64,000 nucleotides of DNA, from IMG/VR virus record IMGVR_UViG_3300010429_001449; one strand, written 5' to 3'. The position numbers and the translations under genes were made by a program. Positions 24-30,574 of this stretch are shown piece by piece (the first letter of the stretch is position 1; each line of letters opens with the position of its first letter). Below the pieces are notes generated by a model. It was given only the letters and a program-made list of their open reading frames with translations, made no database searches and was not told where the DNA came from. The stretch is from a virus (taxonomy: Duplodnaviria > Caudoviricetes).

Positions 24-440
24 GGGGGGACGGGGACGGCGGGGACGATCCGGACAGGGGACGCCGTCATCGGGGACGGGGACAGCGACGTCGGCGGGGA
101 CGCCGGACGGGGACGGGGGGACGCCGTCAAGCGGGGGACGTTCCGGACGGGGGACGGGGACGCCGGACAGGGGGGACGGGGACGGGGACGCGAATAGGTA
201 ACGCTCCGTGCAGGGGGACGCCGTCGGCGGGGGACGGCGGGGACGGTCCGGACGGGGGGATCAACGGCGGGGACAATCGGCGGGGACGGGGACGCCGGAC
301 GGGGACACCGTCGGCGGGGACGGGGGGACAATCTGCAGGGGGACGCGGAGCAGTACGGACGGAGACGACGCCGTCGGGGGACGCGGGGGACGCCTGGCGA
401 AGACCGATTGATAATAGGAGCGGGGAGCGGGGGTGGGGAC
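24..440 (+). repeat. G-rich degenerate repeat block dominated by GGGGAC(G)
   Basis: Dozens of GGGGAC copies, all on the + strand; ORFs here translate to low-complexity G/R/T/D sequence. Confidence 0.85.
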
Positions 441-1049
441 TGGGCGGCGGGGGGCACGGGGGAGCGGGGCGGGGCGCGGGAGCGGGGAGCGGGGTCGACG
501 GCGCGGAGCGGGCGGAGCGGGCGACGCCAGCGACGGGGGCGTCAATGGTGAGCGCGTACTGCGGGGGCGCGGGTTACGGGCGGCGGGGCGGCTGCAGCGC
601 GGGGGTGACGCCAGCGGCGCGGGCGACGGGGCGGTCATCGGCGCGGCGCGGCCAGGCGGGGGGAGCGGGGCGACGGCGCGGAGCGCGAGCGCCGGGCGCG
701 GGGCGTATCACTGGGGCGGGCCTTGCGGGGTACGGGGCGGCGCTGGGCCTTGCGGCGGCACGTCAGGGGCGGCAATGGTGAGCGAGAGCGAGCAGGGCGG
801 GGCGTGAGCGGGCAACAACGGGGCGCGGCGGGGGCGACAGCGGCGCGGGCCGACGGGGGAGCGCGGCGGGTCGACGGCGAGACTGTTCCGCACGGCGGCG
901 CGGCGGAGCCGGGAACCGGAGTTCGTCCGCCGGGGCGCGGAGCCGGGGCCAGCGACGGGGCGACGCCGATTGATAATCGTGCGGGGCTGGGCGGGGGCGG
1001 GGATCGACGAGGGTCGTCGACCGACGGCGAGGACGTGCCGGAGTCGGCG

Positions 1050-1660
1050 CGGTCAGGGGAGCCTGCCGTTTGATAATCGTCGCCTCCGGTGGGGGCGTCT
1101 GCGCCGTGCGGGGCGGTCACGGCGCGGCGGGGTGCGGGGTCAGGGGTCGACGGTGCGGTGCGGGGGCGGTGCTGGGCAATGGTCAGGGGTCGACGGTGCG
1201 GCGGGTCAGGGTCAGGGGCGGCGGACTGGGCGCGGGTCAGGCTACACGGGGCGCGGCGGGGGTCAGGGGCGCGTACGCGGTCAGGCGGGGCAATAAGTCA
1301 GGGGTCAGGCGATACGCGGCGCGGCGGGGCGCGTACGCGGTCAGGCGGGGCAGTACGGGGCGGGTCAGGGAGCGGAGCGGGTCAGGGGTCAGGCGGACGA
1401 CGGGGTCGTCGGGGCGGGGGTCACGGGGCAAGAGCGAATAGGTAACGGGTCGACGCGGCGCGGGGTCAGGCGATACGCGGCGGCGGGGGTCAGGCGGTCA
1501 GGCGTGGTCACGCGGGGTCAGGGGGTCACGGGGTCACGGCGCGGGGCGGGGCGGCGGTCACGGGGTCACGGGGTCACGACCAGGGGCGGGGCGGCGCGGT
1601 CAGGGACGCGGGGCAATGGTCAACGGTTGACGGGGCGGTCAGGCGCGACGCGGTCACGTA
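1050..1660 (+). repeat. G-rich degenerate repeat block dominated by GGTCA(G/C)G
   Basis: Many copies of GGGTCAGG/GGGTCACG/CGGTCAGG on the + strand only; the same block type recurs at about 2540-2985. Confidence 0.8.
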
Positions 1661-1804
1661 AAAAAAAAGTTACGCGGCGCATAAAAAAACTTTCCGGCGC
1701 GGCGCGGGGCAATGGTCTACTTGTGCGCGAAAGTGCCGTTTTGCTGCATTATACAACGTAGAAAAGATTTCGCGCAAATAGTCCAGATTAGTGTAAAAAG
1801 ATAC

Positions 1805-1833
1805 TTGACATAGGGCAGAAAAGCGTATATACT
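1805..1833 (+). promoter_or_regulatory. Canonical sigma70-type promoter (17-nt spacer) of first sigma gene
   Basis: TTGACA 1805-1810, 17 nt, TATACT 1828-1833; RBS GGGAGA upstream of GTG 1885. Confidence 0.75.
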
Positions 1834-1884
1834 TACTTGTGTTGTGACGGTCAGACAGTCAAACACTTTTCAGGGAGAAACAAA

Positions 1885-2475
1885 GTGAAGAACGAAACAG
1901 TCAGGGAAGCGCAGAACGGGTCACGGACGGCGGTCGATGCGATAGTGGCGCAGTACGCGGATATGGCAAGCAATGCGGCGTACGGCGGTTTTGGGGCGGC
2001 GCGGTACGAAGACAAGCGCCAAGCGGCAATGGTCGGAATTCTGGAAGCTATCCAGACTTTCGACGCGGCGCGGGGCGCGGATTTTGGGACGCATGTCTAC
2101 TGGGCAATCAAGGGCGCGATCACGGTAGAATGCCGGGCGTACGCGGATAATATGCGCGACATGGTCGCTCGGGATGAAGACGGAGACGTCGCAACGGTCA
2201 CGGAAGTTAGCGCCGATCTCAATATGCTTTCACCGGACGCGGAAGCGGAAGCGAGAGAGACAAGCGCCGAAAATACAGTGAAGCTGCAGAACGCAATCGA
2301 CGCTATCAGGACGTTGAAAGATAGGGACGCGGAAGCGGTCACGCTCTATCTGGGTCTTGACTGCGGTCGGGCGCGGTCTTTCGCGGAAGTCGGGTCGATC
2401 ATGGGATTGACTCGGGAACGGGTCAGGCAGATTGTAGGACGCGGTCTGGAACAAATCAGGCAAGCTGCAGCGTGA
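1885..2475 (+). CDS. RNA polymerase sigma-70 family factor (sigma A of this window)
   Basis: Region 2-like QAAMVGILEAIQTFD..GADFGTHVYWAIKG; region 4 HTH SFAEVGSIMGLTRERVRQI; start placed at GTG after RBS. Confidence 0.9.
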   Translation: MKNETVREAQNGSRTAVDAIVAQYADMASNAAYGGFGAARYEDKRQAAMVGILEAIQTFDAARGADFGTHVYWAIKGAITVECRAYADNMRDMVARDEDGDVATVTEVSADLNMLSPDAEAEARETSAENTVKLQNAIDAIRTLKDRDAEAVTLYLGLDCGRARSFAEVGSIMGLTRERVRQIVGRGLEQIRQAAA

Positions 2476-2539
2476 CGCGGGGCAATGGTGAAGCGGCGCA
2501 AAAACGGGATGCTACGGAGCATCCCGTTTTTATGTACGG

Positions 2540-2985
2540 GTCAGGCGCGGAGCGGGTCACGGTCACGGCGGCGCGGGGCAATGGTCAGGCGGTCACGCGG
2601 GGCGGCGGTCAGGGGGTCAGGCAATCACGGAAGCGGGGCGGCGGCGGTCAGGCAATACGGGGCGCGGGGCGGGGTCAGGGGCAAACAAGCGGGGCGGGGC
2701 AATGGTTCAGGGTCAGGCGGCGCGGAACGGGTCACGGCGGGGCGCGTACGCGGTCAGGCGGTCAGGGTCAGGCGCGGGGCGGAACGGGGGGTCAGGGTCA
2801 GGCGGTCACGGCGGAACGGAAGCGGGGCGCGGTCAGTCAGGCGCGGCGGGGTCACGGAACGGACGGCGGCGGGGTCAGGCGCGGGGGTCAGGGAGACGGA
2901 GTCGAGCGGGTCACGCGGCGGGGCGGCGAGGGGCGGTCAGCCGAGCGAGAAGCGATTGATAATCGCCAGGAGGGGCCAGGTCAGC
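2540..2985 (+). repeat. Second GGTCA-rich, G-skewed repeat block
   Basis: Repeated GGTCAGG/GGTCACG and GCGGAACGG; no credible coding signal. Confidence 0.75.
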
Positions 2986-3376
2986 GGGGCGAGAGACGCC
3001 AGGACGCGGCGCGGGGGCGTTCGGGTCGGAACCAGGACGGGGGCCAGGACGGGATCAGCCGGAGGCATAATGCGATTGATAATCGTCACGCCGGACGGGG
3101 GCCGGGGCGGGTTCCAGGGGGCAGACTAGGTCGGCGGCAGAACGGGGCATACCGGCAGGGGCAATCCTAACGGACGGGGGCAAGCGGGGGCGGCAGAACG
3201 GCGGCGGGGCAAGTGGGGCGGGGTCAGGTGGCAGAACGGCAGGGGGCAATGGTACGTGGCGGGGCGGGGCATTGCAGGGCGGCGGGGGGCAGAATGCAGA
3301 ACGGGGCGCGGGCCGGGCGCGGGGGCGCAGTACAGGCCGTTGTCGACCGCCTGCAATGGTAGCCGATTAAAACAAC

Positions 3377-3404
3377 AAAGCCCCGTCCGCAGACAGGGCT
3401 TTGT
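3377..3404 (-). terminator. Intrinsic terminator
   Basis: AAAGCCC...GGGCTTT hairpin just downstream of minus-strand gene ending 3427. Confidence 0.65.
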
Positions 3405-3426
3405 TACTCCGCGCAGTTGCCAGCGG

Positions 3427-3795
3427 CTATTCCTCTTCGCGTTGCGCGGCGCATTCTTCGCAAGCGGCTTCAGCCGCTTCAACGCAATCGCCGAAACAAC
3501 CCAGGCGGAATTCGTTGTTTTCCGTATCGTAGACAATGGTCGTCTGGTACGTATCGCCGACGTTCAGCACAACCGCAACACAATCAAGCCAGTAGGAATC
3601 GACGTGACTGTGTTCGTGACGTACCGCGTCAGTCCCGTAGCAATGGGTGAGCGTAGCGATCTCGTTCATCACGGTATCCGGGCCGTTATGGCAACCCTTA
3701 ACCGCCTTGAGCATTGCCAGAACCTTATCCGCCTCTTCACTTGTCAGTTGAAGGGCCGTCATCAGTTCCGCCTTATCGATGCTTACCTTAGCCAC
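3427..3795 (-). CDS. Hypothetical phage protein
   Basis: GTG after GGGAGA RBS and own promoter cassette; LNVGDTYQTTIVYD motif. Confidence 0.8.
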   Translation of the reverse strand: MAKVSIDKAELMTALQLTSEEADKVLAMLKAVKGCHNGPDTVMNEIATLTHCYGTDAVRHEHSHVDSYWLDCVAVVLNVGDTYQTTIVYDTENNEFRLGCFGDCVEAAEAACEECAAQREEE

Positions 3796-4032
3796 TTTGC
3801 AATCTCCCTGAAAAGTAATGGTTGACTGTCCAGCACTATCCTTAATATAACAGAACATTAGGCTATGTCAAGAGACTTTCCAGAAATATTTTTACGCAAT
3901 AACAAGCGGCGCGGAACGGGACAGGTTAGACAACGGTAGGGCGGGGCGCGGAACAAGCGGCGGCGGGGCGGGGCTATAGCCTGGCGCGGCAAGACAACAG
4001 ACAGGTCCGTAGCGGGAGACGACAGACGTTGC

Positions 4033-4137
4033 GCGGAGCGGTAGCGGAGCGGTAGCGGAGCGGTAGCGGAGCGGTAGCGGAGCGGTAGCGGAGCGGTAGC
4101 GGAGCGGTAGCGGAGCGGTAGCGGAGCGGTAGCGGAG
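4033..4137 (+). repeat. Perfect tandem repeat (GCGGAGCGGTA) x9.5
   Basis: Nine identical 11-mers 4033-4131 plus a partial unit. Confidence 0.97.
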
Positions 4138-4446
4138 AACCGGACGCGGAACGGAGTCCGGCGGGGCGCGGGGACGCGGACGCCACGCCGATTGATAATC
4201 CCGTCGGATACGCCAGGAGGAGCCAGGAGGAGCTAGGCCAGGGAAGAGCCAGGAGGCAGGATTGATAATCGTCAGCCCTCTGGCGCGGTGCGGACGCGGC
4301 GGCCAGGGGGTCAAGCGTCGGCGGAATCGGCGGTCGGCGGGGCCGGGGCCGGGCTGTACGGGGTCGGGGGTAGGGTCGGGGCGTCCGTACAAAAAGAACC
4401 CCCGGCGGGGTTAGGGCCGGGGGTTTGTGGCCGTGCGAGTCAATGG

Positions 4447-4758
4447 TCAGGCCGTGACGCCAAACAACGTATCGACCAGCGTATCCGTTGCGGCGGACAG
4501 TGCGATGACGGCGGATTGCGCGTGACGCGCAATCCAGCGGCGGGCCGCGTCTTCACTCTCGAATTGCTTTTCAGCGGAGATTACGCGGCGGACGCGGCCA
4601 CGGTCAAAGTCGGCGGAATAACCGTAGCGTTGCGCCGTGATTGTGCGGTCATAGTTCAAGCGGAGTTCCCCGATAGAAACATCACCAGCGAAGCAATCCC
4701 GCGAATCACCAAGCCTAACAAGGGGTCTGTTGATCGACCACGAAAACGATACTGACAT
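4447..4758 (-). CDS. Hypothetical protein
   Basis: ATG with GAGGAG RBS; terminator-like hairpin at 4391-4428. Confidence 0.75.
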   Translation of the reverse strand: MSVSFSWSINRPLVRLGDSRDCFAGDVSIGELRLNYDRTITAQRYGYSADFDRGRVRRVISAEKQFESEDAARRWIARHAQSAVIALSAATDTLVDTLFGVTA

Positions 4759-4809
4759 GGTAAGCTCCTCGAAAAGAAACGGGGACCGGTCTCCCAGTCC
4801 CCTAGATGG

Positions 4810-5097
4810 TTAGCTAAGGCCACTGGCCACTTCAATGGCACGGCGGCCTTGTTCCTCAATGGCCTCGTCCAGCGGGTCATAGAGACTCCGCAGATAGGCG
4901 CGGGCCGCGTCCGGGTCTTCCCGCTCTAACAGACGGACGCGGCGCATAAGATCGTTGCGCCGTGACAGTGCGACGCCGACGTCGGCGTCTTCGGCCACAA
5001 TAGCCTGCAGCAGGGCGTTGTCGCGTCCACAGACAACGTCGTAACCGATTTCATGATCCAAGCGGTTAAGCTCATCGTAAAGGTCGAAAAGTTCCAC
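4810..5097 (-). CDS. Hypothetical protein (acidic, helical)
   Basis: GTG after cassette RBS TTTTTGGGAGA. Confidence 0.8.
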   Translation of the reverse strand: MELFDLYDELNRLDHEIGYDVVCGRDNALLQAIVAEDADVGVALSRRNDLMRRVRLLEREDPDAARAYLRSLYDPLDEAIEEQGRRAIEVASGLS

Positions 5098-5682
5098 GGT
5101 TATCTCCCAAAAAGGTTGTCTGTCCACTACACTTAATATAACAGCAATCAAGCCAATGTCAAGAGAGTTTCCGAGATTATTTCAGATATTTTTACGCAAT
5201 GGTTGATAGGCCGTTTCTCAGACTGGTCTCCGCGTGATAGTCGGTGTGTTGCGTTCCGCACTAACAGACCGCGCAGACGCGGTTGTCGACCGGAATCCGG
5301 TAGCCGCGTCAATAGAGATACAAGCGGTCATTACAAATCCGGTAGACGGCGGGGGAAGTCTTTTCGGGGTCGGCGCGGCCTGGGTGCGGCGGCGCGGCGG
5401 CCCGCTTCGACGTCGACGTCTATTGAAAATCGCGATCCCCAGCAGGGAGGGGGACGAGCAACGGGCTTGGACTCCGTCGCAGACTCAGTCAACAGCGGGG
5501 GCAGATTGAAAATCGCCACACCCCGCCAGGCAAGCGGACGAGCGGGGCGGCGCACTAGGGCGCAAGGGCGGGATACATCTAGGCGGGGCCGGGGTTAGGG
5601 TTCAAGCATTGCAAGGGACGGATAAACGGCCAATGTTGCGCGGGACGATATGTCCCGCGCAACAATGGTTGACGCGCAACGG

Positions 5683-5907
5683 CTACAGAACGAACGGCTG
5701 CAGCCGCGCACGGCGGACAATCCACGTCCTGACATATTGCGCGGGAAGGGCCGCGCCGGGGGTATGCTCGTCCTGATAGGCGGATAACGGTATCCATGTA
5801 TCATCCCGGCTATCGGCGGAAAATGCCAGCTTGATTGCCTTATCGCTGACTTCCAGTACTTCCGCGTATGCGCGTACCCGCGCCCAATCCTGAGTGATGG
5901 TAGTCAT
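5683..5907 (-). CDS. Hypothetical small protein
   Basis: ATG after GCCGGAG RBS of second-class leader; SDKAI..WIPLS pattern. Confidence 0.75.
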   Translation of the reverse strand: MTTITQDWARVRAYAEVLEVSDKAIKLAFSADSRDDTWIPLSAYQDEHTPGAALPAQYVRTWIVRRARLQPFVL

Positions 5908-5913
5908 AGTTGA

Positions 5914-5980
5914 CTCCGGCGGGGGGTTAATTTGTCCCGCTCTATAAGACGATACGGACGGCGGAAAAGAATCTGACAAG
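5914..5980 (-). promoter_or_regulatory. Second-class promoter/leader, copy 1
   Basis: CTTGTCAGATT-N8-CCGTCCGTAT..TATAGAG..CGGGA..TTAACCCCCCGCCGGAG; matches 7245-7313. Confidence 0.7.
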
Positions 5981-6120
5981 CGGCACGGAATTAAAATCCC
6001 CGTCGAGAACCGATAGGGGGCGCGTACAGACAACGAAGCTATAGCATACGCGGCGGAACATCAACGCGGCGGCGGACGCAATGCGGCGCACTGTACGCCG
6101 CGCAATGGTCGAGTTAAAAC

Positions 6121-6152
6121 AAAAAAGCCCTATCCAGCGGATAGGGCTTTTT
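6121..6152. terminator. Bidirectional intrinsic terminator
   Basis: AAAAAAGCCCTATCC-AGC-GGATAGGGCTTTTT. Confidence 0.85.
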
Positions 6153-6163
6153 GTATTCCGCCG

Positions 6164-6532
6164 TTATGGTTCGCGGGGGTCGACCGCTTCCATAACAAGT
6201 TCCTTGCCCAAGCTGACATAGTAGAGAACCGCCGTAGCTTCCGCGCCGTCAATCCACGCATAGTTACGCGGACGATACGTTACGGCGCGGCGGTTCAATG
6301 CCTTGCTGATAAGGCACAGAAGCAATCCCTTGCCATCATCCCGGAACGTAATGGTGCAGGGGATATGCCGCAGATAGAAACGGGGTCCGCGTCCGCGGTC
6401 CGCTTCCGTTGAAACGTCCAGCTTTTCCGCGTCCGCATGCGCTTCAAGCGCAGTTTCAACAGCGGCCACGACCTCGTCAATGGTCATGCTAGACGTTACG
6501 TTGACTTCGATGTTTTCCGTTGCAATCGTCAT
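6164..6532 (-). CDS. Hypothetical protein
   Basis: ATG after cassette RBS; terminator downstream. Confidence 0.8.
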   Translation of the reverse strand: MTIATENIEVNVTSSMTIDEVVAAVETALEAHADAEKLDVSTEADRGRGPRFYLRHIPCTITFRDDGKGLLLCLISKALNRRAVTYRPRNYAWIDGAEATAVLYYVSLGKELVMEAVDPREP

Positions 6533-6855
6533 TCTGACTTCTCCCGAAAAGAGGAATGTTGTCCGCGTCACTATCCTTAATATAACAGCACAGCGGCCTA
6601 TGTCAAGAGATTTTCCAGAAATATTTTTACGCAAAGACAAGCGGCGGCGGGACGGGGTCGGGACGGGAACGGACGGCGGGTATGCAGTTTGCGCGAAGGG
6701 CGGGACGGTTGCCTAGACAACGGCGGGGCGGCGGAGACTATCCCCCGGCGGAGCAACCGCAAGACGCAGTCGCGCCGCGACGCCGCCGGGGGTCGACCGC
6801 CTGGCGGGAGCCGATTGATAATCGCGCCCCACCTGGAGGGATCAGCCCACTCTGC

Positions 6856-6915
6856 GCAAAATATTATGCTTAAAAGTGTGTTAAACTTCGCACTGTTTTA
6901 AGCATAATATTTTGC
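6856..6915. repeat. 60-bp AT-rich inverted repeat element, copy 1
   Basis: GCAAAATATTATGCTTAAAA-N20-TTTTAAGCATAATATTTTGC, perfect 20-bp arms; second copy at 30575-30634. Confidence 0.92.
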
Positions 6916-6986
6916 TTAGCGACGAGGCGGGGGCTTGGAAATGTGCGGTCGGGGGCCGGGTCGTCTGCGCCAGGGCGGGGTCTGGC

Positions 6987-7238
6987 TTATTTGCGCCGTC
7001 GTTTCTTGTCGGCGGCGCATCGCTGGCAGTAATAATAACCGTCCGGGCCATACCAGACCATGTCGGGAGTTAAGTCCGGTTCTCCGCAATGGTCACAACT
7101 GAGACGTTGCGAAGCGCAACATTGCTCAACGCAACGCTCCGCTTGCCAGAACGTATCATACCGCGTTCCGCAATAGGAACACGTACAGACGCGCCCGTCA
7201 ACCGTTATCCTTCCGTCCTGAGTAACATAAGTCTTCAT
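6987..7238 (-). CDS. Small Cys-rich (zinc-finger-like) protein
   Basis: CSYC, CxxxC, CDHC, CQRC motifs; RBS GCCGGAG. Confidence 0.75.
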   Translation of the reverse strand: MKTYVTQDGRITVDGRVCTCSYCGTRYDTFWQAERCVEQCCASQRLSCDHCGEPDLTPDMVWYGPDGYYYCQRCAADKKRRRK

Positions 7239-7244
7239 CCGAAT

Positions 7245-7313
7245 CTCCGGCGGGGGTTAAGTTTTCCCGCGTCTCTATAGACCTATACGGACGGGCGCTA
7301 CAAATCTGACAAG
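7245..7313 (-). promoter_or_regulatory. Second-class promoter/leader, copy 2
   Basis: Shares all conserved blocks with 5914-5980. Confidence 0.7.
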
Positions 7314-7416
7314 AGAGTCACAGAATCTTTTTCGGGCCGCGCCGGGCGCAATGGTACACAAAAAAAAGCCCGCAACCCCTTGCGGGGTCTGCAGGCTTGT
7401 TTTGTTCGCTGTACGG

Positions 7417-7707
7417 CTACAGTTCCACCAACAGACAACCCTTGCCCGCTTGGGCGGGTAATGGTTCAACCGCCGCCCACAGTGCGCGGGCCGCACCGGG
7501 GTTGCGGGAGTCTGTTCCCGACCAGAACGTCACGACTTCCCGACGGTCATCATTGTAAATGGCGACTTCACCGTCCAGTTCCGGGCCGTTGCCTCTGACA
7601 GCAACCGTCGCCTTGCGAAACGCGGCTGCAGCGTCCACTTTCTCCGGGTGTTCCGTGCGCGAGACTACCGCGCCGAAACGGTCTTTTGTTTCAACTGAGT
7701 ACATCAT
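7417..7707 (-). CDS. Hypothetical protein
   Basis: ATG after AAGGGAGA; follows the 7715-7978 gene; terminator at about 7359-7404. Confidence 0.75.
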   Translation of the reverse strand: MMYSVETKDRFGAVVSRTEHPEKVDAAAAFRKATVAVRGNGPELDGEVAIYNDDRREVVTFWSGTDSRNPGAARALWAAVEPLPAQAGKGCLLVEL

Positions 7708-7714
7708 TTCTCCC

Positions 7715-7978
7715 TTAGACAATGGTAGCAATGAAACGGTCGATCTTGCTGTTCAATGCCGCGCTTCCGCAAGCAAGACAATGGTCCTCATCTTCCCACG
7801 CTTCCGCGAGTTCCCACGCATCCGCTTCCGTGAGTTCAACAACCCACGTGCCGTCTTCCGCGTCGCTCTCTCGCATGGCTTGCGAGAGTAAGTCCGACGT
7901 GAGATACCGTCCGCCGTGCCAGAAGATAGCTTCCGCTTCGCTGGCATCAAGAGTCAGGGTGTAAGCGTACCTTGCCAC
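7715..7978 (-). CDS. Hypothetical acidic protein
   Basis: GTG after cassette RBS. Confidence 0.8.
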   Translation of the reverse strand: MARYAYTLTLDASEAEAIFWHGGRYLTSDLLSQAMRESDAEDGTWVVELTEADAWELAEAWEDEDHCLACGSAALNSKIDRFIATIV

Positions 7979-8372
7979 GTTTCGATCTCCCAAAAAGAAT
8001 CTGGAATGTCCTGCACTACTGTTAATATAACAGCGGCGCAATCAATGTCAAGAGTATTTTCTGAAATATTTTGCGAGTGTGCGGGGCTTAGCGGAAAGTG
8101 TGCGGGCCTAGCCGTAAGAGTGTGCGCCGTGCGCGAAGACGTGCGCGGGGCCGGGCCTAGCCGAGCGGCGCAGAACGGGGGCCGGTTGGAAATCGCTACC
8201 CGGTACCGGGGGCGAGACGACGAGTCGCCGCGCCAGGATAATCGAGAGGGCGCGGGTCGGATTGGAAATCACGTGCCCTACCAGGCGGGGGCGGGGCCGC
8301 GACAACTGGATTTGTAACCCTGACAACCCGATTTGTAGAGCGGGGGGAATTGCCGGAGCAATGGTACAAGAG

Positions 8373-8400
8373 AAAAGCCCCGGAGAGTATCCGGGGCTTT
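8373..8400 (-). terminator. Intrinsic terminator
   Basis: AAAAGCCCCGGA-GAGTA-TCCGGGGCTTT. Confidence 0.8.
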
Positions 8401-8417
8401 GGGGAGTTGCGCCGCGA

Positions 8418-8708
8418 CTATCCGTCATAGTCGCCGCCGCCGTCCAGTTCCTCACCGAGCGGCGTTTCCCAGTCCCTGAAATCGTCATCGTGCGCGAAAT
8501 CCTGCCGTTCCTGCTCTTCCAGGATACGGTCGCGCTCAAGTTCGGCGTCCTCTTCGTACTTTTCCTCTTCCAACCGCTCCGACGCGGCATCATACTCGCG
8601 CTGTAACCGCGCTACGCGCTCATTGGCGCGACAAAGTTCTTGCCGGAGATTGTCGGCGTCACGCGACGCCTCCTCCAGTTCCCGTGCGATTGTGTCCAGA
8701 TCGGTCAT
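8418..8708 (-). CDS. Highly acidic coiled-coil protein
   Basis: Cassette promoter/RBS; E/D-rich heptad-like sequence. Confidence 0.8.
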   Translation of the reverse strand: MTDLDTIARELEEASRDADNLRQELCRANERVARLQREYDAASERLEEEKYEEDAELERDRILEEQERQDFAHDDDFRDWETPLGEELDGGGDYDG

Positions 8709-8895
8709 TGTCCAGTCTCCCGAAAAAAGGTTTGAAGTCCAGCACTACCGTTAATATAACAGCGGGCCGCGCAATGTCAAGAGTCTTTTTCCAGAATCTT
8801 AGAGATTTCTTTTTGAGCAATGGTCAAGGGCGTACAGCCGTTAAACGACAAAGCCCCGGTTTAGGGCCGGGGCTTTGCGTAGTGCTGTCTGTAGG

Positions 8896-9267
8896 TCATC
8901 CTACAGACTTCGGGAGAATGTTGTGTAGGGCAATGGTGTTAATGACGTTCGGGCGGGCCGGATCACGGCGGACCGTGATACGGACGGGAACGACCACGGT
9001 CGCGCCGCCCGGCGCAACCGCTTGATACTGAGCAATGCGCGTCAAAGCCAGCACGATACAGTCGATGGTTGACTCGCACGGCTCGTCCAGCACGATATCC
9101 GTATGCGTCTCGCGCTGGGCGTACGTTCCGGCGCTGGCGCAATAATGCAAGGGCGTAAGGCGCTCCCGCAACCGGACGACAAAGCGGTCGACCGTATCAA
9201 CGACGGTGTTTCCCCACTTGTGCCGAATCTCCGGCGTTGCCAGAAATGCAAGGGCGGCGTCTGTCAT
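8896..9267 (-). CDS. Hypothetical protein
   Basis: ATG after TTTTGTGGAGA; terminator at 8850-8877. Confidence 0.8.
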   Translation of the reverse strand: MTDAALAFLATPEIRHKWGNTVVDTVDRFVVRLRERLTPLHYCASAGTYAQRETHTDIVLDEPCESTIDCIVLALTRIAQYQAVAPGGATVVVPVRITVRRDPARPNVINTIALHNILPKSVG

Positions 9268-9633
9268 CGTTCCGTCTCCACAAAAGAAATGAATGTCTGT
9301 CACTACTGTTATTATAACAGCACGGCGTCCAGCGTCAAGAGAGTATTTCCGAAGATTCATCCTATTTCCGCGACGCCGGGAGACGGCCTGAGTTCGGGCA
9401 GCGAGACGGCGAGACGCTGACACCCAGTTGTCAGGGCCGGGCGGGGCCGAGGGCGGCGATTGATAATCGAGGCACTGAGGGCGGGTCGGGGGCGGAAATC
9501 CGGCGGCGTTGCTCGACGAAGAGCGGGGATTGATAATCGCGTCCCTCCCCCGGCGCGGGGCCGGGGCCGTTAAATGAACCCGGCCCGTCCGGAAAGTCCG
9601 GAGCGGGCCGGGAGAATGTCGTTACGCGGGCCG

Positions 9634-9909
9634 CTATGCGGGCCGCGTGTACTTGCGGAGCGTATTTTCCGATACGTCCAGCGCCTTTGACGTTGCGCGA
9701 TAGTTGCCGTTGCAAGCGGCAAGCGCCGCCGTCATATAGGCGCGAAGTACGGCGTCGACCGTCCGTACGCTGTTCGGGCCGTCAAGCGTTGTTTCGGGCT
9801 GCAGGTCCGTTGCCTTTGCAACCGGCGCAACCGTTGCCGTTGCCGTTGCAACCGGCGCGGTTGTTTCAACCGTTATCGTCACTCCGTTAACTTCAATGGT
9901 TTGCTTCAC
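9634..9909 (-). CDS. Fis-like helix-turn-helix DNA-binding protein
   Basis: C-terminal ALAACNGNYRATSKALDVSENTLRKY matches the Fis/NtrC-type HTH pattern. Confidence 0.8.
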   Translation of the reverse strand: MKQTIEVNGVTITVETTAPVATATATVAPVAKATDLQPETTLDGPNSVRTVDAVLRAYMTAALAACNGNYRATSKALDVSENTLRKYTRPA

Positions 9910-10832: not shown

Positions 10833-10842
10833 CAAACAACTA

Positions 10843-10875: not shown

Positions 10876-10891
10876 CTCTTTGGGAGTAACA

Positions 10892-11566: not shown

Positions 11567-11812
11567 CTTCCCCGTTCTCCCTGGAAACCGGAGCGATCCA
11601 AGCGGTCGCTCCGGTTTTTCTTTGTACGGATTTCCACTCCCGAACCGTTGCATTTTCTGCAACAGTTCGCGGGGATTGATAATCGCGTTTCGAGTTGTTG
11701 CATTTTCCGCAACAACTGCCCGCGCCGAGAGGGTTTTTCGAGGGAATGATAATCGCGTTCCGGAACGCCCGCGCCAGGGCGGGGGCGTTTCAACCGGGGT
11801 TGTAATCGGGGG

Positions 11813-13099: not shown

Positions 13100-13499
13100 T
13101 TTCGTTTCTCCACAAAAGAAATGTCTGTCACTATCTCTAATATAACAGCGTCGCGGCCAATGTCAAGAGTCTTTCCAGAATATTTTTACGGATTTGTTTC
13201 ATCCCCCGGACGGCGGGTCGCGCAAGGCTAGGCGCGAACGGGCGGCGCGGGGTGGTAGTTTCCTGGCGGTGGTCCTGGCAGTGATCCTGGCGGTCGGGCG
13301 GCGCTCGGCGGAGCGATTGAAAATGTCGGGGGGACGGCGAACGAGGCGGTTTTCCGCGTCGGGGGCGCGGAGCGAGGGAAGGATTGGAAATCGGCGTCCC
13401 CCTGCCAGGCCAGGCCGCAACTTGGGTTGTAATCGTCGGGGGTTAAAGCAAAAAGCCCCGGCTTGTTAGGGCCGGGGCTTAGTGCCAGTGGCGGGACAA

Positions 13500-15018: not shown

Positions 15019-15557
15019 TCCCCGACAGGGGGCGGCCCCGCCGAAGGGGGCGCGGGGCGAGGGGGCGATTGAAAATCGGCAGGGGGTCGGGATACGAGCG
15101 GGAACAGAGCAAACGAGAGCATCTCACGGCGTCGTTTCTCGGCTTCCTCCTGATAGCGACGAAAGCGGAGCGCGGTATCATCGTCGAGCTTAAGTTCGGG
15201 CCACTCAAGTTGCGTAGGCGTCTTTTGGGGTAGCGCGGCAGCCCCGTCTACGCGCATGAACAACGACATCGACGGCGGCAGTTCGGGCGGCGGGTGCAAG
15301 TACCACTCATGCTCCAGCCAGGCCGGGGCAGCGGCGGCAAGAGGGCTGGGGCCGTAAGTCGCACGACGGCGGCGCAAAGCCAAGTCCCGGCGAACCTCAA
15401 GGACGCCGTAGGCGTAGAACGCGAACGGCAGAGCGCACGACATAAGCGCGGCCTGCCACGAGACTTGACGGCGAAACGCCGACGCCGTCACCAAAAGCAC
15501 AGGGACGATAAGCAACACGAACAAAGAGAACTCAACGAAGAGTCGCTCGGCGAACAT
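15015..15557 (-). CDS. Possible membrane protein
   Basis: Two N-terminal hydrophobic stretches; no cassette RBS, start uncertain. Confidence 0.4.
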   Translation of the reverse strand: MFAERLFVEFSLFVLLIVPVLLVTASAFRRQVSWQAALMSCALPFAFYAYGVLEVRRDLALRRRRATYGPSPLAAAAPAWLEHEWYLHPPPELPPSMSLFMRVDGAAALPQKTPTQLEWPELKLDDDTALRFRRYQEEAEKRRREMLSFALFPLVSRPPADFQSPPRPAPPSAGPPPVGD

Positions 15558-15692
15558 CCGCGCTTTCCCGCTAGACAACATTGATAATCTTGCTCCTGTC
15601 TTGTGTTCGTTTGGAAATCGGTTTCGAGAACCCCGGCGTTTTTCGGTAAGACGCCAGGGTTGTTTTTCATTCTCCGCCGGAGCGACGCGGGG

Positions 15693-16585: not shown

Positions 16586-16888
16586 AACCCCAGTATAACG
16601 AAGGTAAGCGGTCTGTCAAGGGGATTGGAAATCGCGCCCCCTGCCCCCGTAAACAAAAAGGGCCGCCCCGCGTCCGGAGCGGCCCTGTCCAGTCAATTAA
16701 TTTGAGACAAAAGAAAGTAAGTAGTATCACATGGTTTCCTCCCGGCAAGGCATTGTTGCCTAACAAGGCGCTGCTTGCTCCGCAACAAGGCGATCTGCTT
16801 CTCTCGCGTATTTCGAGGCGGTGCGAGTTCAACCGCCCTACTTTACACAATATCGCGCTTGTCTTGGGGTGCTTAACGCGCAGTCCTG

Positions 16889-17716: not shown

Positions 17717-18601
17717 TCAAGAGACTATTTCGGATTTCTTTTCTGAAAAGTCGTATTGCTGGAAGTCCGACGGGTTACGGTCGAGGGTGGCGGCTATACG
17801 GTTACGCGCCGCGCCTACGAATGCGGGGTCGATCTCAAAGCCGGTGAAGCTAACGCCGAGTTCGGAACACGCGAGAGCGGTTGAACCTATGCCGCAGAAG
17901 GGGTCAAGAACATGCTTGGTCTTGGCGAGGCCGTGCAACTTGATGCACGTTCGGGGCAAGGATATAGGGAACGACGCCGGATGCGGGCGGTCTTTGTCCT
18001 TTTCCTGGATCGTATCGTAGGGAAGGAACCAAGCGTTGCCCCGGCAATGCAACGGCTGTTTCGCGCCCCAGCGCTCGATGTTCGCGGGGTCGGCGTAGGG
18101 GACGCCGATTGATAATCTGTCTAGGGGCACTTCGCCCGTTTTCGTCAGGTGGAAGATGAACTCGTGGCAGGCGTTGAGGAACCGAGGGCTGTTGATTGGT
18201 TGGTAGTGGCCGTGTACGACTTCGGGAGACTTCTCGTTAGCGCCGGGGACGGCGATGGACTTCACCCACAGAATGAGGTTCTGCAACTTGAAGTACTGCC
18301 GGGCGACTTGCATGATCTCGAAGGGGCCGAGGGGACTGACGGGAACGCCGCCGATGTTGAGGAAGAAAGAGCCGTCGTCCGCTAGGCGCGAGGCCACGCA
18401 CGTCAACCAGCCGTGACACCAGTCGAGATAGTCTAGGCGGCTGATGCTGTCGTTGTAAGTGCGGTAGCCCGTTCCGACGTTGTACGGAGGGGATGTAACG
18501 ACTACGTCGTAGACCGCCGAGTCCTGTTTCATTCCGTCCACACAGTCGCCGACGATGAGGCGGTGCGTAACGCCGCCGTGCTGCAGTTCGTATGCGTTCA
18601 T
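17717..18601 (-). CDS. DNA methyltransferase, N4-C/N6-A, beta class (orphan)
   Basis: Catalytic VTSPPYN precedes SAM-binding VLDPFCGIGST; HPASFP motif. Confidence 0.93.
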   Translation of the reverse strand: MNAYELQHGGVTHRLIVGDCVDGMKQDSAVYDVVVTSPPYNVGTGYRTYNDSISRLDYLDWCHGWLTCVASRLADDGSFFLNIGGVPVSPLGPFEIMQVARQYFKLQNLILWVKSIAVPGANEKSPEVVHGHYQPINSPRFLNACHEFIFHLTKTGEVPLDRLSIGVPYADPANIERWGAKQPLHCRGNAWFLPYDTIQEKDKDRPHPASFPISLPRTCIKLHGLAKTKHVLDPFCGIGSTALACSELGVSFTGFEIDPAFVGAARNRIAATLDRNPSDFQQYDFSEKKSEIVS

Positions 18602-19745: not shown

Positions 19746-19930
19746 TTTGTTCGTTCTCCACAAAAGAAGTGTTCCTGTCCTATCCCTAATATAACCGCGT
19801 CAACGCCTATGTCAAGGATTATTCCCGGAATTCCGTTTTTTTTTTCGCAGATATTTTTCCTCTTGACATTGGCCGTCGTGCCGTTATATTAAGGATAGTG
19901 ACAGACATTCCTTTTGTGGAGATAAGGACA

Positions 19931-21335: not shown

Positions 21336-21587
21336 GCAAGCAGGGCGGCAAGTAGCCTTGAAGGGGTTGGACAACACACCCGCCCCGCAAGACCGATAGC
21401 CCGTGAACTACCGACAACCTTGCGGGGCGAAGAGGCGTCAAGTCAAGACCCTGGAGCCAAAGCCGCTCCGCTCTTTTTATTGCTGGGGGGATTGATAATC
21501 CTGCGGAAACACACCACGAGATCAAAGAGGGTCGGAAAGGACTTACGACAAGCGGGGGTCGGAAAATATTGATAATCTTGCGCCGAA

Positions 21588-22237: not shown

Positions 22238-22381
22238 CGCAAAATCTCCTTATCCTTATTATAACAGAATGTGGCACGGCGTCAAGTGACTTATTTATCT
22301 GAATTATATGTCTTGACACGACTGGCCGTGCTGTTATAATAACAGTAGTGACAGAACAACCCTTTTGTGGAGAACCAGACG

Positions 22382-22888
22382 GTGAAGAACACAATCACCC
22401 CCTTAGTTGTAAAAGACGTGACGGGCTTGCCGCGCATTCGCGTAACAATGCCCCGGCTGAACAAGAACGACACTCTTGACCAGAACCGCAAGGAAGTCGA
22501 CGCGGGCCATTACATCGAAGACGCCGCGATAGAGCGCGTCGTTGTTCTGAGCGACGCGGACTATCGCACATTCTGCAAGAGTCTGTTGACCGATCAGGAC
22601 TGGCTTAACGACAAGGGCGGATCAAACAGCGACTACGATTGTCCGGAAGGCGTTACGTCAATCTGGCAGTTGACGACGGAACAACTGAACTTGTGGCGGA
22701 GACAGGCGTACATCTTCGTCGTGGTTGTCGCCAAAGAATCCGATCCGCATCAACATCTTCTGGTCGACCCGCAAGGCTACGCCTATGCGCGGTACGCCGG
22801 AGAACCCACAGACACCGAAAGCCGCCAGATTGCGGCCAGCGCGGCCAGCGCGGCCCTGGCAGAGAAGGGAGCAGTAACATGTCAGTAA
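22382..22888 (+). CDS. DUF6329-like hypothetical protein
   Basis: LLTDQDWL..GG and LVDPQGYAYARYAG; family recalled from motif. Confidence 0.65.
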   Translation: MKNTITPLVVKDVTGLPRIRVTMPRLNKNDTLDQNRKEVDAGHYIEDAAIERVVVLSDADYRTFCKSLLTDQDWLNDKGGSNSDYDCPEGVTSIWQLTTEQLNLWRRQAYIFVVVVAKESDPHQHLLVDPQGYAYARYAGEPTDTESRQIAASAASAALAEKGAVTCQ

Positions 22889-23316: not shown

Positions 23317-23455
23317 GAACGAAGGGAGCGCAGGACGCGCTCCCTTTTTCTTGCCCCGACTCTGATTGATAATCCTGAGTCGATAACCCCGCCAAGTTAC
23401 CCCTCAATACCGCCCTTATCACCCGATTGGTAATCTTGTTCCAGGACTCGCCGCG

Positions 23456-25173: not shown

Positions 25174-25408
25174 CAGCCGGGGCGAGGGAATCGAGGGCGG
25201 GACGCTTTACCAAAGCGTCTCGCCCTTTTCCGTTGGCGCGAAAGGGATTGATAATCTTGGCGAGAGGGCGCGACGCCCCGACGGGGATTACCAACGAGAT
25301 CGTTGTTCCACAGGAATGATAATCCTGTCCCGGACTTAAACGGAACTGGCTGGCGGATTGTCGGGTCGCCCCAAAAGCGCCCATCGCGTCGCGCCAGCCG
25401 TCCGTTCT

Positions 25409-28374: not shown

Positions 28375-28383
28375 GAGTAACCC

Positions 28384-28782: not shown

Positions 28783-28847
28783 CATAACACGGCCTGCTGT
28801 TATAATAACAGTAGGAAGTCAACAGTCCTTTTGAGGAGAACAAGACC

Positions 28848-29018
28848 ATGAGACTCTTTGTTACGATTTCGCTGGACATTGCGGACGCGGACGATATTGA
28901 TCCGCAAGACATCGTGAACGAACTGGACTACGAAGTCAAACTTGCCGAAGGACACGGCGAGTTGCTCGATACAGAGATCACGGACTGGGCGAAAGACGAA
29001 CACGAGGACGAAAGATGA
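28848..29018 (+). CDS. 56-aa very acidic protein (not in ORF track)
   Basis: Cassette promoter 28779, TTTTGAGGAGA RBS; 19 of 56 residues are D/E. Confidence 0.8.
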   Translation: MRLFVTISLDIADADDIDPQDIVNELDYEVKLAEGHGELLDTEITDWAKDEHEDER

Positions 29019-29260
29019 GCTACAGAATCACCATCGGCGTCACAGAGGCGGGTACGCCGCTCTTCGGGGCGGATACCTGCCGCGCACACGGCGCGGTTAT
29101 GACGACCAAAGTCTACGGGAGCCAACTGGCGCACAGAGTCACCGTAAGGCTTCCCGACGGCGGCGTTGACATTGTGACGCCGACAGAGGCCGATAAACGC
29201 GGCCTGGCGGTTCTCGGAAGTTTCTACGCGCCGCCGGGGGCGCGAGGGAGATCGAGATGA
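29015..29260 (+). CDS. Hypothetical protein
   Basis: ATGA overlaps on both sides. Confidence 0.7.
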   Translation: MSYRITIGVTEAGTPLFGADTCRAHGAVMTTKVYGSQLAHRVTVRLPDGGVDIVTPTEADKRGLAVLGSFYAPPGARGRSR

Positions 29261-29619
29261 TGAAGTACTACGAAGGCTGGCGGACAGCACGCGATGAGGT
29301 AAAAGTCCGTGTTGTCTTGCTCTCTATGGAGCAAAAGACGCTGGAACGCAAGACGCTGCCCTTGCGCCTGGACTTGGTCAATCACAGCCCGACGGGCTTT
29401 GAGTGGGGCTACAACGGCAGCGGCCCGGCGCAACTCGCCATAGCGATACTAGCGGACGCTATTGGAGACGAGCAGGCTAAGGAATTTTACCAAGACTTCA
29501 AGAACCGCATCGTGGCTCGCCTGCCCCGCGACAAGTGGCAACTGACTGCGGCAGAAGTGATAGCGGACGTTGACGACATCAAGCAAGAACAGGCGTGGCA
29601 CGCCTGCACAGGAGACTAA
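29257..29619 (+). CDS. DUF6166-like protein
   Basis: LPLRLDLVNHSPTGFEWGYNGSGPAQLAIAILAD; family recalled from motif. Confidence 0.8.
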   Translation: MMKYYEGWRTARDEVKVRVVLLSMEQKTLERKTLPLRLDLVNHSPTGFEWGYNGSGPAQLAIAILADAIGDEQAKEFYQDFKNRIVARLPRDKWQLTAAEVIADVDDIKQEQAWHACTGD

Positions 29620-30555
29620 ATGCAGATCACCGAGAAAAATGTTTTTCCAATCTTCGAGGCAATCGCCGGGAGCAAGCTGTACGGAACGGACGGCCCGGAG
29701 AGCGACACCGACTGGCGCGGAGTGGTAATCCCGCCGGTTCAGGTCTATTTCGGCACACAGCGGTTCGAGCAGATCGAGACGAAGAAGCCCGACCGAGTCC
29801 TGTACGCGATTGATAAAGCCGTGAAGCTCGTCGAGGCATGCAACCCGAACATGATCGAACTGCTGTACACGCCGCCCCAGCATGTCAAGTTCTGTCATCC
29901 ACACTGGCAACGGATGATCGATAACCGTCATCTGTTCCTGAGCAAGAAGGCGCGGCACACATTCTCCGGCTACGCCTTCTCCCAACTCCAACGCATCAAG
30001 CTGCATCTGCGCTGGCTTGGGGGGCCGCCGACAAAGCCCGACCGCGCCGCTATGGGCCTCAACCCGCACGGCAGCGAGTTCCCCGAAGATCATCTCAAGG
30101 CTCTGAGCATCCTGCCGAGAGAACTAATCCGCGAGGAAGACCGGGAGCGCGTCCGCCAGGAACTTGCCTACAGCGCGGCAATCCGAGAGTGGCAGGACTA
30201 CCAGAAATGGTTGAAGGAGAGAAACCCGTCGCGCCTGAAACTCGAACAGGAGTACGGGTTCGACCTAAAACACGCCCTGCACCTCGTCCGGCTCTTGAGG
30301 ATGGGCGTAGAGATTCTGACCATAGGAGAAGTCATCGTTGACCGCCGAGGGCGGGACGCAGACGAACTGAAAGCCATCTTGCGCGGGTCAATGACCTACG
30401 ATCAGATCATCGCCTACGCACAAGATATGGACGCCAAGCTGGGAGAACTTTATGAAACCAGCACGTTGCGCCACGAGCCGGACCACGCGGGCATAGAAGC
30501 CCTGCTTCTGTCCGTGTTCGAGGAACACTACGGCATCCGCGTCAGACGCGATTGA
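29620..30555 (+). CDS. Pol-beta superfamily nucleotidyltransferase (RlaP/YcgL-like)
   Basis: GSKLYGTDGPESDTDWRG (GS..DxD), NPNMIELL, FDLKHALHLVRLL. Confidence 0.88.
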   Translation: MQITEKNVFPIFEAIAGSKLYGTDGPESDTDWRGVVIPPVQVYFGTQRFEQIETKKPDRVLYAIDKAVKLVEACNPNMIELLYTPPQHVKFCHPHWQRMIDNRHLFLSKKARHTFSGYAFSQLQRIKLHLRWLGGPPTKPDRAAMGLNPHGSEFPEDHLKALSILPRELIREEDRERVRQELAYSAAIREWQDYQKWLKERNPSRLKLEQEYGFDLKHALHLVRLLRMGVEILTIGEVIVDRRGRDADELKAILRGSMTYDQIIAYAQDMDAKLGELYETSTLRHEPDHAGIEALLLSVFEEHYGIRVRRD

Positions 30556-30574
30556 AAATCCGTCGAGTCGCTGC

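Follow-up and report, generated by a model that had tools for sequence, protein, structure and literature searches.

The window, by which we mean the whole stretch of 64,000 nt analysed, is part of a phage contig of 268.8 kb that is classed as linear and estimated to be 77% complete. It holds a G-rich non-coding block at its left, early units separated by spacers and, further right, replication genes, with leftward being the direction of ~90% of the genome's genes. An exact scan of both strands for the 11-nt word GATTGRWAATC returned 21 matches in the window, all 21 on the + strand; shuffled sequences gave an expectation of 0.14 and a maximum of 1. Over the whole contig the exact count was 23 on + and 0 on -, with two further sites outside the window at contig positions 268624 and 268693, confirming the original observation of an asymmetric core that keeps one polarity regardless of gene direction. 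Since a scan with GATTNNNAATC recovered the identical 21 sites, the core of the exact word is only ever GAT, GAA, GGA or GGT. Core length is strictly 3, position 5 is G in every site and position 7 is C in none, so that the perfect palindrome GATTGNCAATC never occurs.

With a weight matrix at a threshold of at least 14 bits, 36 sites were tallied on the + strand of the whole contig and none on the - strand, and 30 of the 36 fall within 12.6% of the contig (Table 1). The roughly 30 same-strand sites first noticed by eye were all recovered, 21 of them as exact copies at the expected positions and the remaining ten (406, 1068, 5421, 8184, 11744, 13315, 15579, 15609, 21567 and 25314) as + strand variants with one or two mismatches. 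A separate listing holds two - strand matrix matches that score ~14.0, at the cut-off.

Table 1. Copies of the word in the window and their surroundings
Site or zone	Position	Strand	Spacing and setting
Single site GATTGATAATA	406..416	+	15.7 bits; G-rich non-coding left block
Pair GATTGATAATC / GTTTGATAATC	968..1078	+	100 bp apart; G-rich non-coding block
Exact pair	2954..3084	+	120 bp apart; gap on which the sigma gene (1885-2475 +) and gene 3427-3858 (-) converge
Exact pair	4190..4270	+	70 bp apart; between leftward terminator 4412-4397 and next leftward promoter 3871-3844
Pair TATTGAAAATC / GATTGAAAATC	5421..5514	+	83 bp apart; tandem (-) spacer
Single exact site	6813..6823	+	AT-rich palindrome (~70 bp) ~27 bp later
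Pair GGTTGGAAATC / GATTGGAAATC	8184..8270	+	76 bp apart; between terminator 8400-8374 and promoter 8051-8024
Exact pair	9458..9538	+	70 bp apart; tandem (-) spacer
Pair GATTGATAATC / GAATGATAATC	11674..11754	+	70 bp apart; convergent gap
Pair GATTGAAAATG / GATTGGAAATC	13315..13392	+	67 bp apart; between terminator 13480-13453 and promoter 13166-13139
Single site GATTGAAAATC	15067..15077	+	Where 14638-15018 (+) and 15015-15581 (-) converge; within the latter's called 3' end
Close pair CATTGATAATC / GTTTGGAAATC	15579..15619	+	30 bp apart; first member aligns with a site in the relative
Single site GATTGGAAATC	16623..16633	+	26 nt past leftward terminator 16686-16659
Exact site	18107..18117	+	Inside N6/N4 DNA methylase gene (17717-18601, -)
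Pair GATTGATAATC / TATTGATAATC	21490..21577	+	77 bp apart; convergent gap, 20 nt after rightward terminator
Pair GATTGATAATC / GATTGGTAATC	23364..23435	+	61 bp apart; convergent gap
Pair GATTGATAATC / GAATGATAATC	25246..25324	+	68 bp apart; convergent gap
Last strong site	30550..30560	+	Overlaps stop codon of RlaP-like gene (29620-30555 +), left of gene 30681-31964 (-)
Second, weaker zone of degenerate copies	39826..60990	+	Includes exact copy at 49440

Placement, gradient and conservation of the sites

The spacing of the sites is bimodal, with 30-120 bp within pairs and 0.5-4.4 kb between clusters; together with their occurrence on one strand, this is the opposite of the even strand distribution and random spacing that would have spoken against a signal. 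Pairs consist of sites in the same direction, mostly 61-83 bp apart (within-pair spacings of 69, 100, 120, 70, 83, 76, 70, 70, 67, 30, 68, 77, 61 and 68 bp), and a distance of exactly 70 bp does occur three times, as had been claimed. The intergenic location proposed for most sites was also correct: 27 of the 30 strong sites lie in non-coding DNA, which makes up 35% of the region (binomial p = 6e-10). The description of these spacers as GC-rich applies left of ~14 kb, where they are also G-skewed, but not further right.

Sites are present at all six convergent junctions and in every long (at least 270 bp) tandem leftward gap, and at none of the seven divergent promoter regions (Fisher p = 6e-4). 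None overlaps a promoter; they stand after terminators in long gaps, the order in tandem gaps being terminator, sites and next promoter. Compact terminator-promoter junctions have no site at all, including the whole cassette array at 32-45 kb, which uses the same promoter type. The proposed independence from gene direction is true of the local direction, but nearly all strong sites come just after a leftward unit's 3' end, and they face leftward transcription in a single orientation. The exceptions, at 406, 968 and 1068 and the two sites outside the window, are found further along the same leftward path, past the sigma gene.

From left to right the density of strong sites per 10 kb is 9, 8, 6 and 1, followed by degenerate copies within genes up to ~61 kb and then by background for 200 kb, with a stretch at 32-40 kb that has no sites. 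The second zone contains 23 degenerate + strand copies against 1.3 expected (for the core TGRWAATC, 14 on + vs 1 on -), mostly inside leftward replication genes and in all three reading frames. Two other words share the polarity of the 11-mer and fade with distance as it does: CAATGG, at 46:0 over the first 20 kb, and GGGGAC, at 82:2 in a stretch of 9.5 kb that spans the contig junction. G skew likewise declines with distance from the left, and spacers become shorter.

A relative with ~64-70% protein identity keeps the word, its polarity, its pairing and the zone boundary, with 22 copies on + vs 2 on - (at least 10.5 bits), and a distant relative (PolA 47%) has a weaker same-strand bias of ~20 vs 1 (at least 9 bits, 40 kb). 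In the close relative the word is identical although the spacers are otherwise unalignable; for the pair at 11674..11754, both sites are kept in the orthologous gap while the flanks have diverged. The exact site in the methylase gene lies 484 nt into the gene in both phages, and the rightward RlaP gene carries exact in-gene sites here and in the relative. Positions of degenerate in-gene copies vary between relatives while density and strand are kept, and same-direction pairing is the rule in three lineages. Gene content between the sites differs between relatives, with two cassettes inverted. What the relatives preserve is the sequence and not a structure. The 11-mer is thus a genuine conserved signal, read at the DNA level and with fixed polarity.

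A proposed polar barrier and other possible readings of one strand

The reading that we tentatively favour, as possible rather than probable, is that the words are asymmetric protein-binding sites serving as orientation-dependent barriers to the dominant leftward transcription, similar to stoperators; protein binding, the block to polymerase and its leftward direction are what we infer. The 11-mer would be recognised on double-stranded DNA by an intrinsically asymmetric reader of phage or host origin, perhaps a monomeric protein that combines two DNA-binding modules, as the L5-type repressor does, and two bound copies ~60-80 bp apart would form a barrier that depends on orientation. Leftward RNA polymerase that has run past a unit's own terminator would be halted there, which would seal each early unit from the next promoter and keep antisense read-through out of rightward operons. 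C-rich leftward RNA, as expected from the G-rich left spacers, might add Rho-type release. Under this model the in-gene sites of RlaP have a non-blocking orientation for that rightward gene. However, the degenerate copies in replication genes and the exact methylase-gene copy would stand in the way of necessary transcripts, and the sites follow terminators, where elongation should already have ceased, instead of lying within operons or at promoters. As compact junctions work without sites, an insulator is not generally needed, and genome position matters. The original view of a polar DNA-level site distinct from an ordinary operator or promoter holds in that no partner element accompanies the word, none of the seven divergent promoter regions has it and relatives conserve it; the binder proposed with it fares worse. 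This Fis-like protein (9634-9909) gave only sub-threshold HTH matches, and the relative encodes no homologue of it within the 25.6 kb that keep the word, an absence that is weak evidence given that the relative's contig is incomplete. Family searches of the early proteins, which are orphans, yielded no candidate binder.

Stoperators are, to our knowledge, alone among polar protein sites in being well understood. The monomeric L5-type repressor binds over 20 asymmetric 13-mers, and a site that is reversed no longer blocks (PMC9283540). Like the operators and stoperators of Cluster A mycobacteriophages (L5 gp71-type, PMC9283540), the word is a short asymmetric site of about a dozen bp (11 bp here, 13 bp there) in tens of dispersed, mostly intergenic copies with clade-wide conservation, and the orientation-dependent action seen there is what we propose here. 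L5 sites, in contrast, are oriented by local transcription and are found at promoters or within operons, whereas here the six rightward operons are without an opposite-strand site and the copies stay on one strand, after terminators. They are also paired ~70 bp apart and confined to part of the genome of an apparently lytic giant phage, and family searches of the early proteins identified no gp71-like protein. Paired short protein-binding words have also been discussed for the T5 injection-stop region, where a hypothesis paper (bioRxiv 10.1101/866236) describes paired DnaA boxes in the first-entering DNA; the setting is similar, a large non-coding, repeat-rich stretch beside pre-early genes driven by host promoters. 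The T5 elements are, however, clustered in one ~1.6-kb region and include inverted repeats, whereas the word here extends over 30-60 kb and, read directly against TTWTNCACA, has three mismatches to a DnaA box.

Strand-locked short words have been known in phages for 50 years as nick sites, their function unexplained. Nicking of the + strand at the word by a phage nickase, with exact copies as major and degenerate copies as minor, less often used sites, strikes us as rather unlikely here but is, like the guide signal discussed below, a serious rival of the barrier; its precedents are T5/BF23, phiKMV-like phages, tf and Rembedalsseter. Absolute one-strand occurrence that includes near-matches and ignores gene direction is the published hallmark of such sites: in tf, all 14 nick-word sites are on the top strand, as are variants with a single substitution, and the bottom strand has 0 (PMC3517423); the 13 sites of Rembedalsseter are all on one strand, its word being enriched in 60 relatives that share little similarity in DNA (PMC11780129). 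The 11-mer shares with the motifs of tf (5'-TACT/RTGMC-3'), Rembedalsseter (WACTRTGAC), phiKMV-like phages and T5/BF23 (PMC3517423, PMC11780129) this strand lock, also for near-matches, as well as conservation across relatives whose DNA is hardly similar and an uneven distribution (in tf, too, sites cluster toward one part of the genome); its exact and degenerate tiers resemble the major and minor nicks of T5. Nick motifs, however, are unpaired and occur freely inside and outside genes, as only the degenerate copies do here, while the strong ones avoid coding and transcribed DNA, and pairs ~70 nt apart have neither precedent nor rationale. The + strand is the template in leftward units, which might explain why strong sites are excluded from them; consistent with this, exact in-gene copies occur in a rightward gene, whose template is the other strand, but the exact methylase-gene copy and those of the second zone are on template strands. 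Two HNH nucleases are encoded on the contig, but phages commonly carry such genes and these two are distant from the zone, and no DNA ligase gene was found on the contig. Unlikely as well, in our estimation, is a distributed polar guide signal in the manner of Chi, KOPS or SRS for a machine that tracks DNA or a strand from the G-rich left block, whether in genome entry, in end-initiated replication or resection or in packaging, with the consensus exact in free spacer sequence and approximate under coding constraint. The one-strand gradient from strong to degenerate to background would suit it, as would the conservation of density and strand but not of in-gene positions, the fading co-polar words, G skew and spacer length, the compact junctions further right that would need no sites, and the fact that this contig and that of the relative both break in the G-rich block. 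Chi (RecBCD/AddAB), KOPS (FtsK) and SRS (SpoIIIE) are similarly over-represented, strand-polar and domain-wide, with approximate in-gene forms tolerated, but they are unpaired, G-rich 5-8-mers of host chromosomes, the known guide words being 8-mers spread evenly through genes, whereas we see an AT-rich phage 11-mer, paired in gaps, with a steep gradient and a site-free interval at 32-40 kb. By the established polarity rule of Chi, a RecBCD/AddAB-type reader that enters at the left end would need the word on the other strand; no FtsK/SpoIIIE-like motor is encoded on the contig, and the record is perhaps only 77% complete.

More broadly, the word, its two co-polar companions and the G-rich gaps could mark one strand of the leading ~60 kb for an undescribed directional DNA transaction, to which we would likewise give little credence. 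Nicks in pairs on the same strand might, for instance, release ~70-nt gaps from which replication or recombination starts. Alternatively, genome entry might proceed stepwise under the control of a protein ratchet, with early gene units delivered or activated one after another. New beyond the original observation are the same-strand degenerate copies in replication genes and the conservation of word, polarity, pairing and boundary in relatives. The word is an exact 11-mer with an asymmetric core, a fixed pair geometry and a sharp, conserved zone boundary, found across a clade of giant phages from anaerobic digesters; its strong copies strictly avoid transcribed DNA, and degenerate ones are written through replication genes. 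We believe that these properties open to direct test which reader uses a single strand of phage DNA, and to what end.

Promoter, hairpin and recombination readings

The word contains GATAAT and the zone encodes three phage sigma factors, so we also considered a stand-alone promoter element for one of these, with rightward non-coding or antisense transcripts helping to shut early genes off; antisense because the copies are co-directional and most genes to their right are leftward. This is very improbable. A -10 element depends on an A where the word has its position 6, and 7 of 47 sites have G there; the +-50 bp around the sites conserve neither a -35 nor any other partner element, and on inspection of the letters themselves the TG is in the wrong register for an extended -10. 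The genome's promoters elsewhere consist of TTGACA plus TGTTATACT, unlike the word. No conserved sequence follows the sites, Rfam families gave no match in the zone, and the sites point into gene 3' ends, so that a sigma-70-family promoter was rejected. The arms GATT and AATC, complementary around a 3-nt core, and the direct-repeat arrangement of all sites, as in attC, together with the variable and partly inverted gene content between them, could point to crossover sites (integron attC-like or another recombinase target) or to a hairpin or cruciform signal like N4 virion-polymerase promoters or REP elements, a reading we regard as the least probable of all. Arm variants (TATTG.., GAATG.., GTTTG..) break the pairing without compensation, with mispairs TC, GG, TT and AA. 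The first flanking position pairs no more than by chance (22/53 vs 17.7, p = 0.12), and the second does so above chance (p = 0.004) but not contiguously; folding energies are ~-2.6 to -6.3 kcal/mol, with z-scores of -0.3 to -2.4. As the largest protein has 1133 aa, there is no N4-like virion polymerase. No match to the tyrosine or serine recombinase families (PF00589, PF00239) was found on the contig and, at the single junction analysed, homology extends ~55 bp past the site before it breaks off; repeated promoter-leader segments of ~70 bp are the likelier crossover points.

Strand, spacing and placement of the word

The 11-mer GATTGRWAATC (hereafter the word) occurs 21 times in the window, always on the + strand, where 0.14 copies are expected, and the whole contig (268,817 bp, 55.5% G+C; linear in the IMG/VR classification, with a CheckV completeness estimate of 77%) holds 23 copies on the + strand and none on the - strand. 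The strand-polar sites of the original prediction are thus real. The window corresponds to contig positions 1158-65157. A looser pattern, GATTNNNAATC, returned no site beyond these 21, which limits the core, i.e. the three bases between the GATT and AATC arms (a core-mutated form would be GATTGNCAATC), to G-R-W; its length is strictly three bases. Scanning both strands and plotting a spacing histogram revealed neither strand parity nor random spacing: the distances are bimodal, with 29-120 bp inside pairs (mode 61-83 bp, and exactly 70 bp three times, as predicted) and 0.5-4.4 kb between clusters. The individual coordinates that had been proposed held in part, 21 being exact + matches and the other ten being variants with one or two mismatches on the same strand. 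Using a weight matrix derived from the sites, we found 36 strong sites (at least 14 bits) on the + strand and essentially none on the - strand, 30 of them within 12.6% of the contig. Conservation is limited to the 11 positions, with nothing further within 50 bp on either side, no helical phasing of the pairs was found, and a shorter variant, TTGTAATC, is seen in just two or three gaps. Two of the contig copies are found at its far end, at a distance of 69 bp from each other, indicating that the zone continues across the contig junction.

Genes were called with a heuristic of our own, a self-trained codon model, the weak calls of which in the G-rich left block are to be disregarded. Nearly all genes from ~40 to 260 kb point leftward (- strand), and the first ~32 kb, the early zone, is occupied by small genes in both directions, with strong host-type promoters (TTGACA, 16 bp, TGnTATAAT/TATATT) and units ending in hairpin terminators. 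Among the products of this zone are three sigma factors, an N6/N4 DNA methylase, an AAA+ protein and an RlaP-like protein; in Pfam and PHROGs searches of ~30 early proteins, the further matches were DUF6573 and a sub-threshold Fis-type HTH, and the remaining proteins had no family match.

Non-coding DNA holds 27 of the 30 strong sites, though it makes up only 35% of the zone (p = 6e-10). Sites are found at all six convergent junctions and in every tandem leftward gap of at least 270 bp, and at none of the seven divergent promoter regions (Fisher p = 6e-4). Sites are lacking from nearly every compact terminator-promoter junction, with a single exception, and the cassette array, with the same promoter type, has none. 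In leftward order, the tandem gaps run from gene to terminator, site 2, site 1 and, after 120-320 bp, the next promoter, which places nearly all strong sites beyond a leftward unit, on its 3' side, where little transcription is to be expected. The sites at 406, 968 and 1068 and the two off-window copies lie farther along the same leftward path.

Degenerate + copies, none of which fall in 32-40 kb, run on through the leftward replication genes (NrdD, PolA, up to DnaB). This second zone is new relative to the original prediction. It contains 23 matches of at least 9 bits in ~25 kb, compared with 1.3 predicted from late genes in the same orientation, and the strand count of TGRWAATC is 14:1, as against 11:7 across the next 196 kb. 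The matches occur in all three reading frames and thus spell no single peptide.

Coordinates of the features discussed (window positions unless marked otherwise)
Feature	Position	Remark
G-rich block	1-3350 (contig 268300-268817 and contig 1-4500)	~4.5 kb, almost gene-free, 70-73% G+C
CAATGG strand bias	1-20000	46 on +, 0 on -; parity further on
Paralogous sigma factors	1885-2475; 10269-10832
GCGGAGCGGTA array	4033-4137	perfect tandem array of an 11-mer, 9.5 copies, G-rich strand; immediately left of pair 4190/4260
AT-rich palindrome, copy 1	6850-6920	right of site 6813
AT-rich palindrome, copy 2	30575-30635	right of site 30550
Convergent gap with hairpins	11620-11730	L018 (relative) 12990-13110
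Compact gap with a site	15582-15692	111 bp
Third sigma factor	19092-19745	adjoins methylase gene
Early genes inverted in relative	22367-22888; 23689-24012	in the relative 15729-16696, reverse-complemented coordinates
Cassette array	32-45 kb
Second zone	~40 to ~61 kb (61,000)
PolA of a relative	L033 15-3017	1000 aa
CRISPR array	L014 1-700	IMG/VR 3300015376_001068

The word in related phages

Our comparison covers three lineages, two of them fragmentary. The main relative, ENA k141_1043913, comes from a digester-type metagenome, and the same lineage is present in two JGI samples and one SRA run; its proteins are ~48-81% identical to those of the phage, and its genes are the same but partly rearranged in order. 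Early proteins common to both include those of 87, 130, 141, 143 and 159 aa, the AAA+ protein and the methylase. The word is unchanged in this relative, with 22 sites on the syntenic strand and 2 on the opposite one (at least 10.5 bits). They are likewise paired (29-111 bp) and occupy convergent gaps as well as long tandem ones, and the run of sites also ends at the boundary between the RlaP and 427-aa genes. In a third, closer lineage (76% identity), a 3-kb contig bears two sites, again with this polarity. A distant relative (PolA 47% identical) has ~20 word-like matches on the corresponding strand versus 1 on the other over 40 kb; among them are two pairs whose members point the same way at a distance of 63 bp, and one of these pairs occupies a convergent junction. 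Between lineages, the strand and density of the copies inside genes are kept, but not their positions.

The gaps themselves cannot be aligned between phage and relative; what aligns is the genes and, throughout both genomes, ~70-bp promoter-leader repeats, which look like crossover points of cassette shuffling. Many cassettes are lineage-specific, two early genes are inverted in the relative, and the two paralogous sigma factors both match one single gene in its available part (48-51% identity). Both sites of one convergent gap persist in its orthologue, where the flanks have diverged. In the convergent gap listed in the table, the first site lies between hairpins (GTTGCA..TGCAAC), the left one being GTCGC..GCGAC in the relative, and these compensatory substitutions suggest additional structured elements in this gap. 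The 217-aa early protein has distant homologues in unrelated, densely packed contexts. The PolA of one relative (L033; 57% identical) bears a LAGLIDADG intein-type insert, and another homologue an HNH_3 insert.

No phage record matched the first 20 kb by megablast, three single proteins used as queries retrieved no related loci from IMG/VR, and a metagenome scan for related loci returned only the lineage of ENA k141_1043913. Scanning IMG/VR for the paired pattern yielded 17 chance matches with no relatives among them; the sole multi-match locus is a CRISPR array, unrelated to the phage, with the exact 11-mer in its repeat, GTTTCAGTCCCTTACAGGGATTGATAATCAGTGATCC. Another of these matches is an unrelated phage (L001) with palindromic TTGATAATCAA sites. 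A literature search for the word found primers only.

Possible readers of the word

These observations require a reader that tells apart both orientations of the 11-bp word and that matters over a domain of 30-60 kb. Among the ~30 early proteins, Pfam and PHROGs revealed no clear DNA-binding candidate. Several identities were rejected. As a hairpin, the word would have recurrent arm variants (TATTG.., GAATG.., GTTTG..) that mispair without compensation, its first flanking position pairs at chance level and predicted stabilities are low. As a sigma-70-family promoter, it has no conserved partner element, 7 of 47 sites carry a G where the -10 element needs its A, the orientation is into gene 3' ends and promoters elsewhere in the genome differ. 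A recombinase target is at odds with the lack of any tyrosine or serine recombinase on the contig and with the only examined breakpoint, ~55 bp off a site. Even taken jointly, we regard the promoter, recombination and hairpin readings as quite improbable. A symmetric dimer operator does not fit sites that are never perfect palindromes and never reversed, the sequences between sites are unrelated, which argues against target-site duplications of a small element, and scans of 1-33 kb found no Rfam family or tRNA, i.e. no known RNA. Judged from the sequence, an IHF site (TTR part missing), a DnaA box (three mismatches), a Fur box (half a box only), a Fis site (wrong length) and CcrM (GANTC absent) were discarded as well.

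It is possible, if tentatively so, that an asymmetric DNA-binding protein uses the sites to block the dominant leftward transcription in an orientation-dependent manner, in the way of stoperators, for which there is precedent (PMC9283540). The intergenic placement past leftward units, the pairing and the absence from promoter regions would fit, and the copies in the rightward RlaP gene would be in the harmless orientation; however, rightward operons lack any opposite-strand site, the sites come after terminators, compact junctions are site-free and copies occur within replication genes. Published nick words are strand-locked, with same-strand near-matches, clade-wide conservation and an uneven distribution (PMC3517423, PMC11780129), and the word shows exactly this hallmark. 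That it marks one-strand nick sites is nevertheless doubtful: its placement would be explicable if the template strand of early units were avoided, but published nick words disregard coding sequence, the copies in the methylase gene and second zone are on template strands, and the pairs are left without explanation. If the word were instead a polar guide, read during entry, replication, resection or packaging by a machine that sets out from the G-rich left block, this would best account for the gradient and the co-polar words described below, and for exact copies in free DNA and approximate ones in genes. We consider this reading rather unlikely. There is no candidate machine, an FtsK-like gene is absent from the contig, and a Chi-type reader coming in from the left would need the word on the other strand. 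Stoperators and nick words are the nearest functional likeness; as the word fails one defining feature of each, we place it in neither family and class it as a new variant among strand-locked phage DNA words. Strand-fixed words in the early regions of giant phages may be a common phenomenon.

The left block and neighbouring repeats

Away from the left block, gap length declines (2346, 951, 588, 531 ... 139-300 bp), as does G skew per 2 kb (0.35, 0.21, 0.12, then ~0). The polarity and fading of the word are shared by two others: GGGGAC, with a strand count of 82:2 across 9.5 kb spanning the contig junction, and CAATGG, confined to the + strand over the first 20 kb. CAATGG often lies near leftward terminators or stop codons. 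The G-rich block carries degenerate GGGGAC, GGTCAG and GGGACGGC repeats and contains both contig ends; the relative's contig ends there too, pointing to either a repeat left unresolved or a physical end.

The GCGGAGCGGTA array includes GCGGTAGCG, a nine-base stretch of the E. coli ops/RfaH element, and repeats AGCGG, the B. subtilis Chi word; either may be coincidence. Finally, the AT-rich palindrome (TATGCTTAAAAGTGTG...CACACTTTTAAGCATA, ~60-70 bp) occurs in two copies, each beginning ~25-30 bp from its neighbouring site, and the second copy, at the zone boundary, was scored as a rightward terminator.
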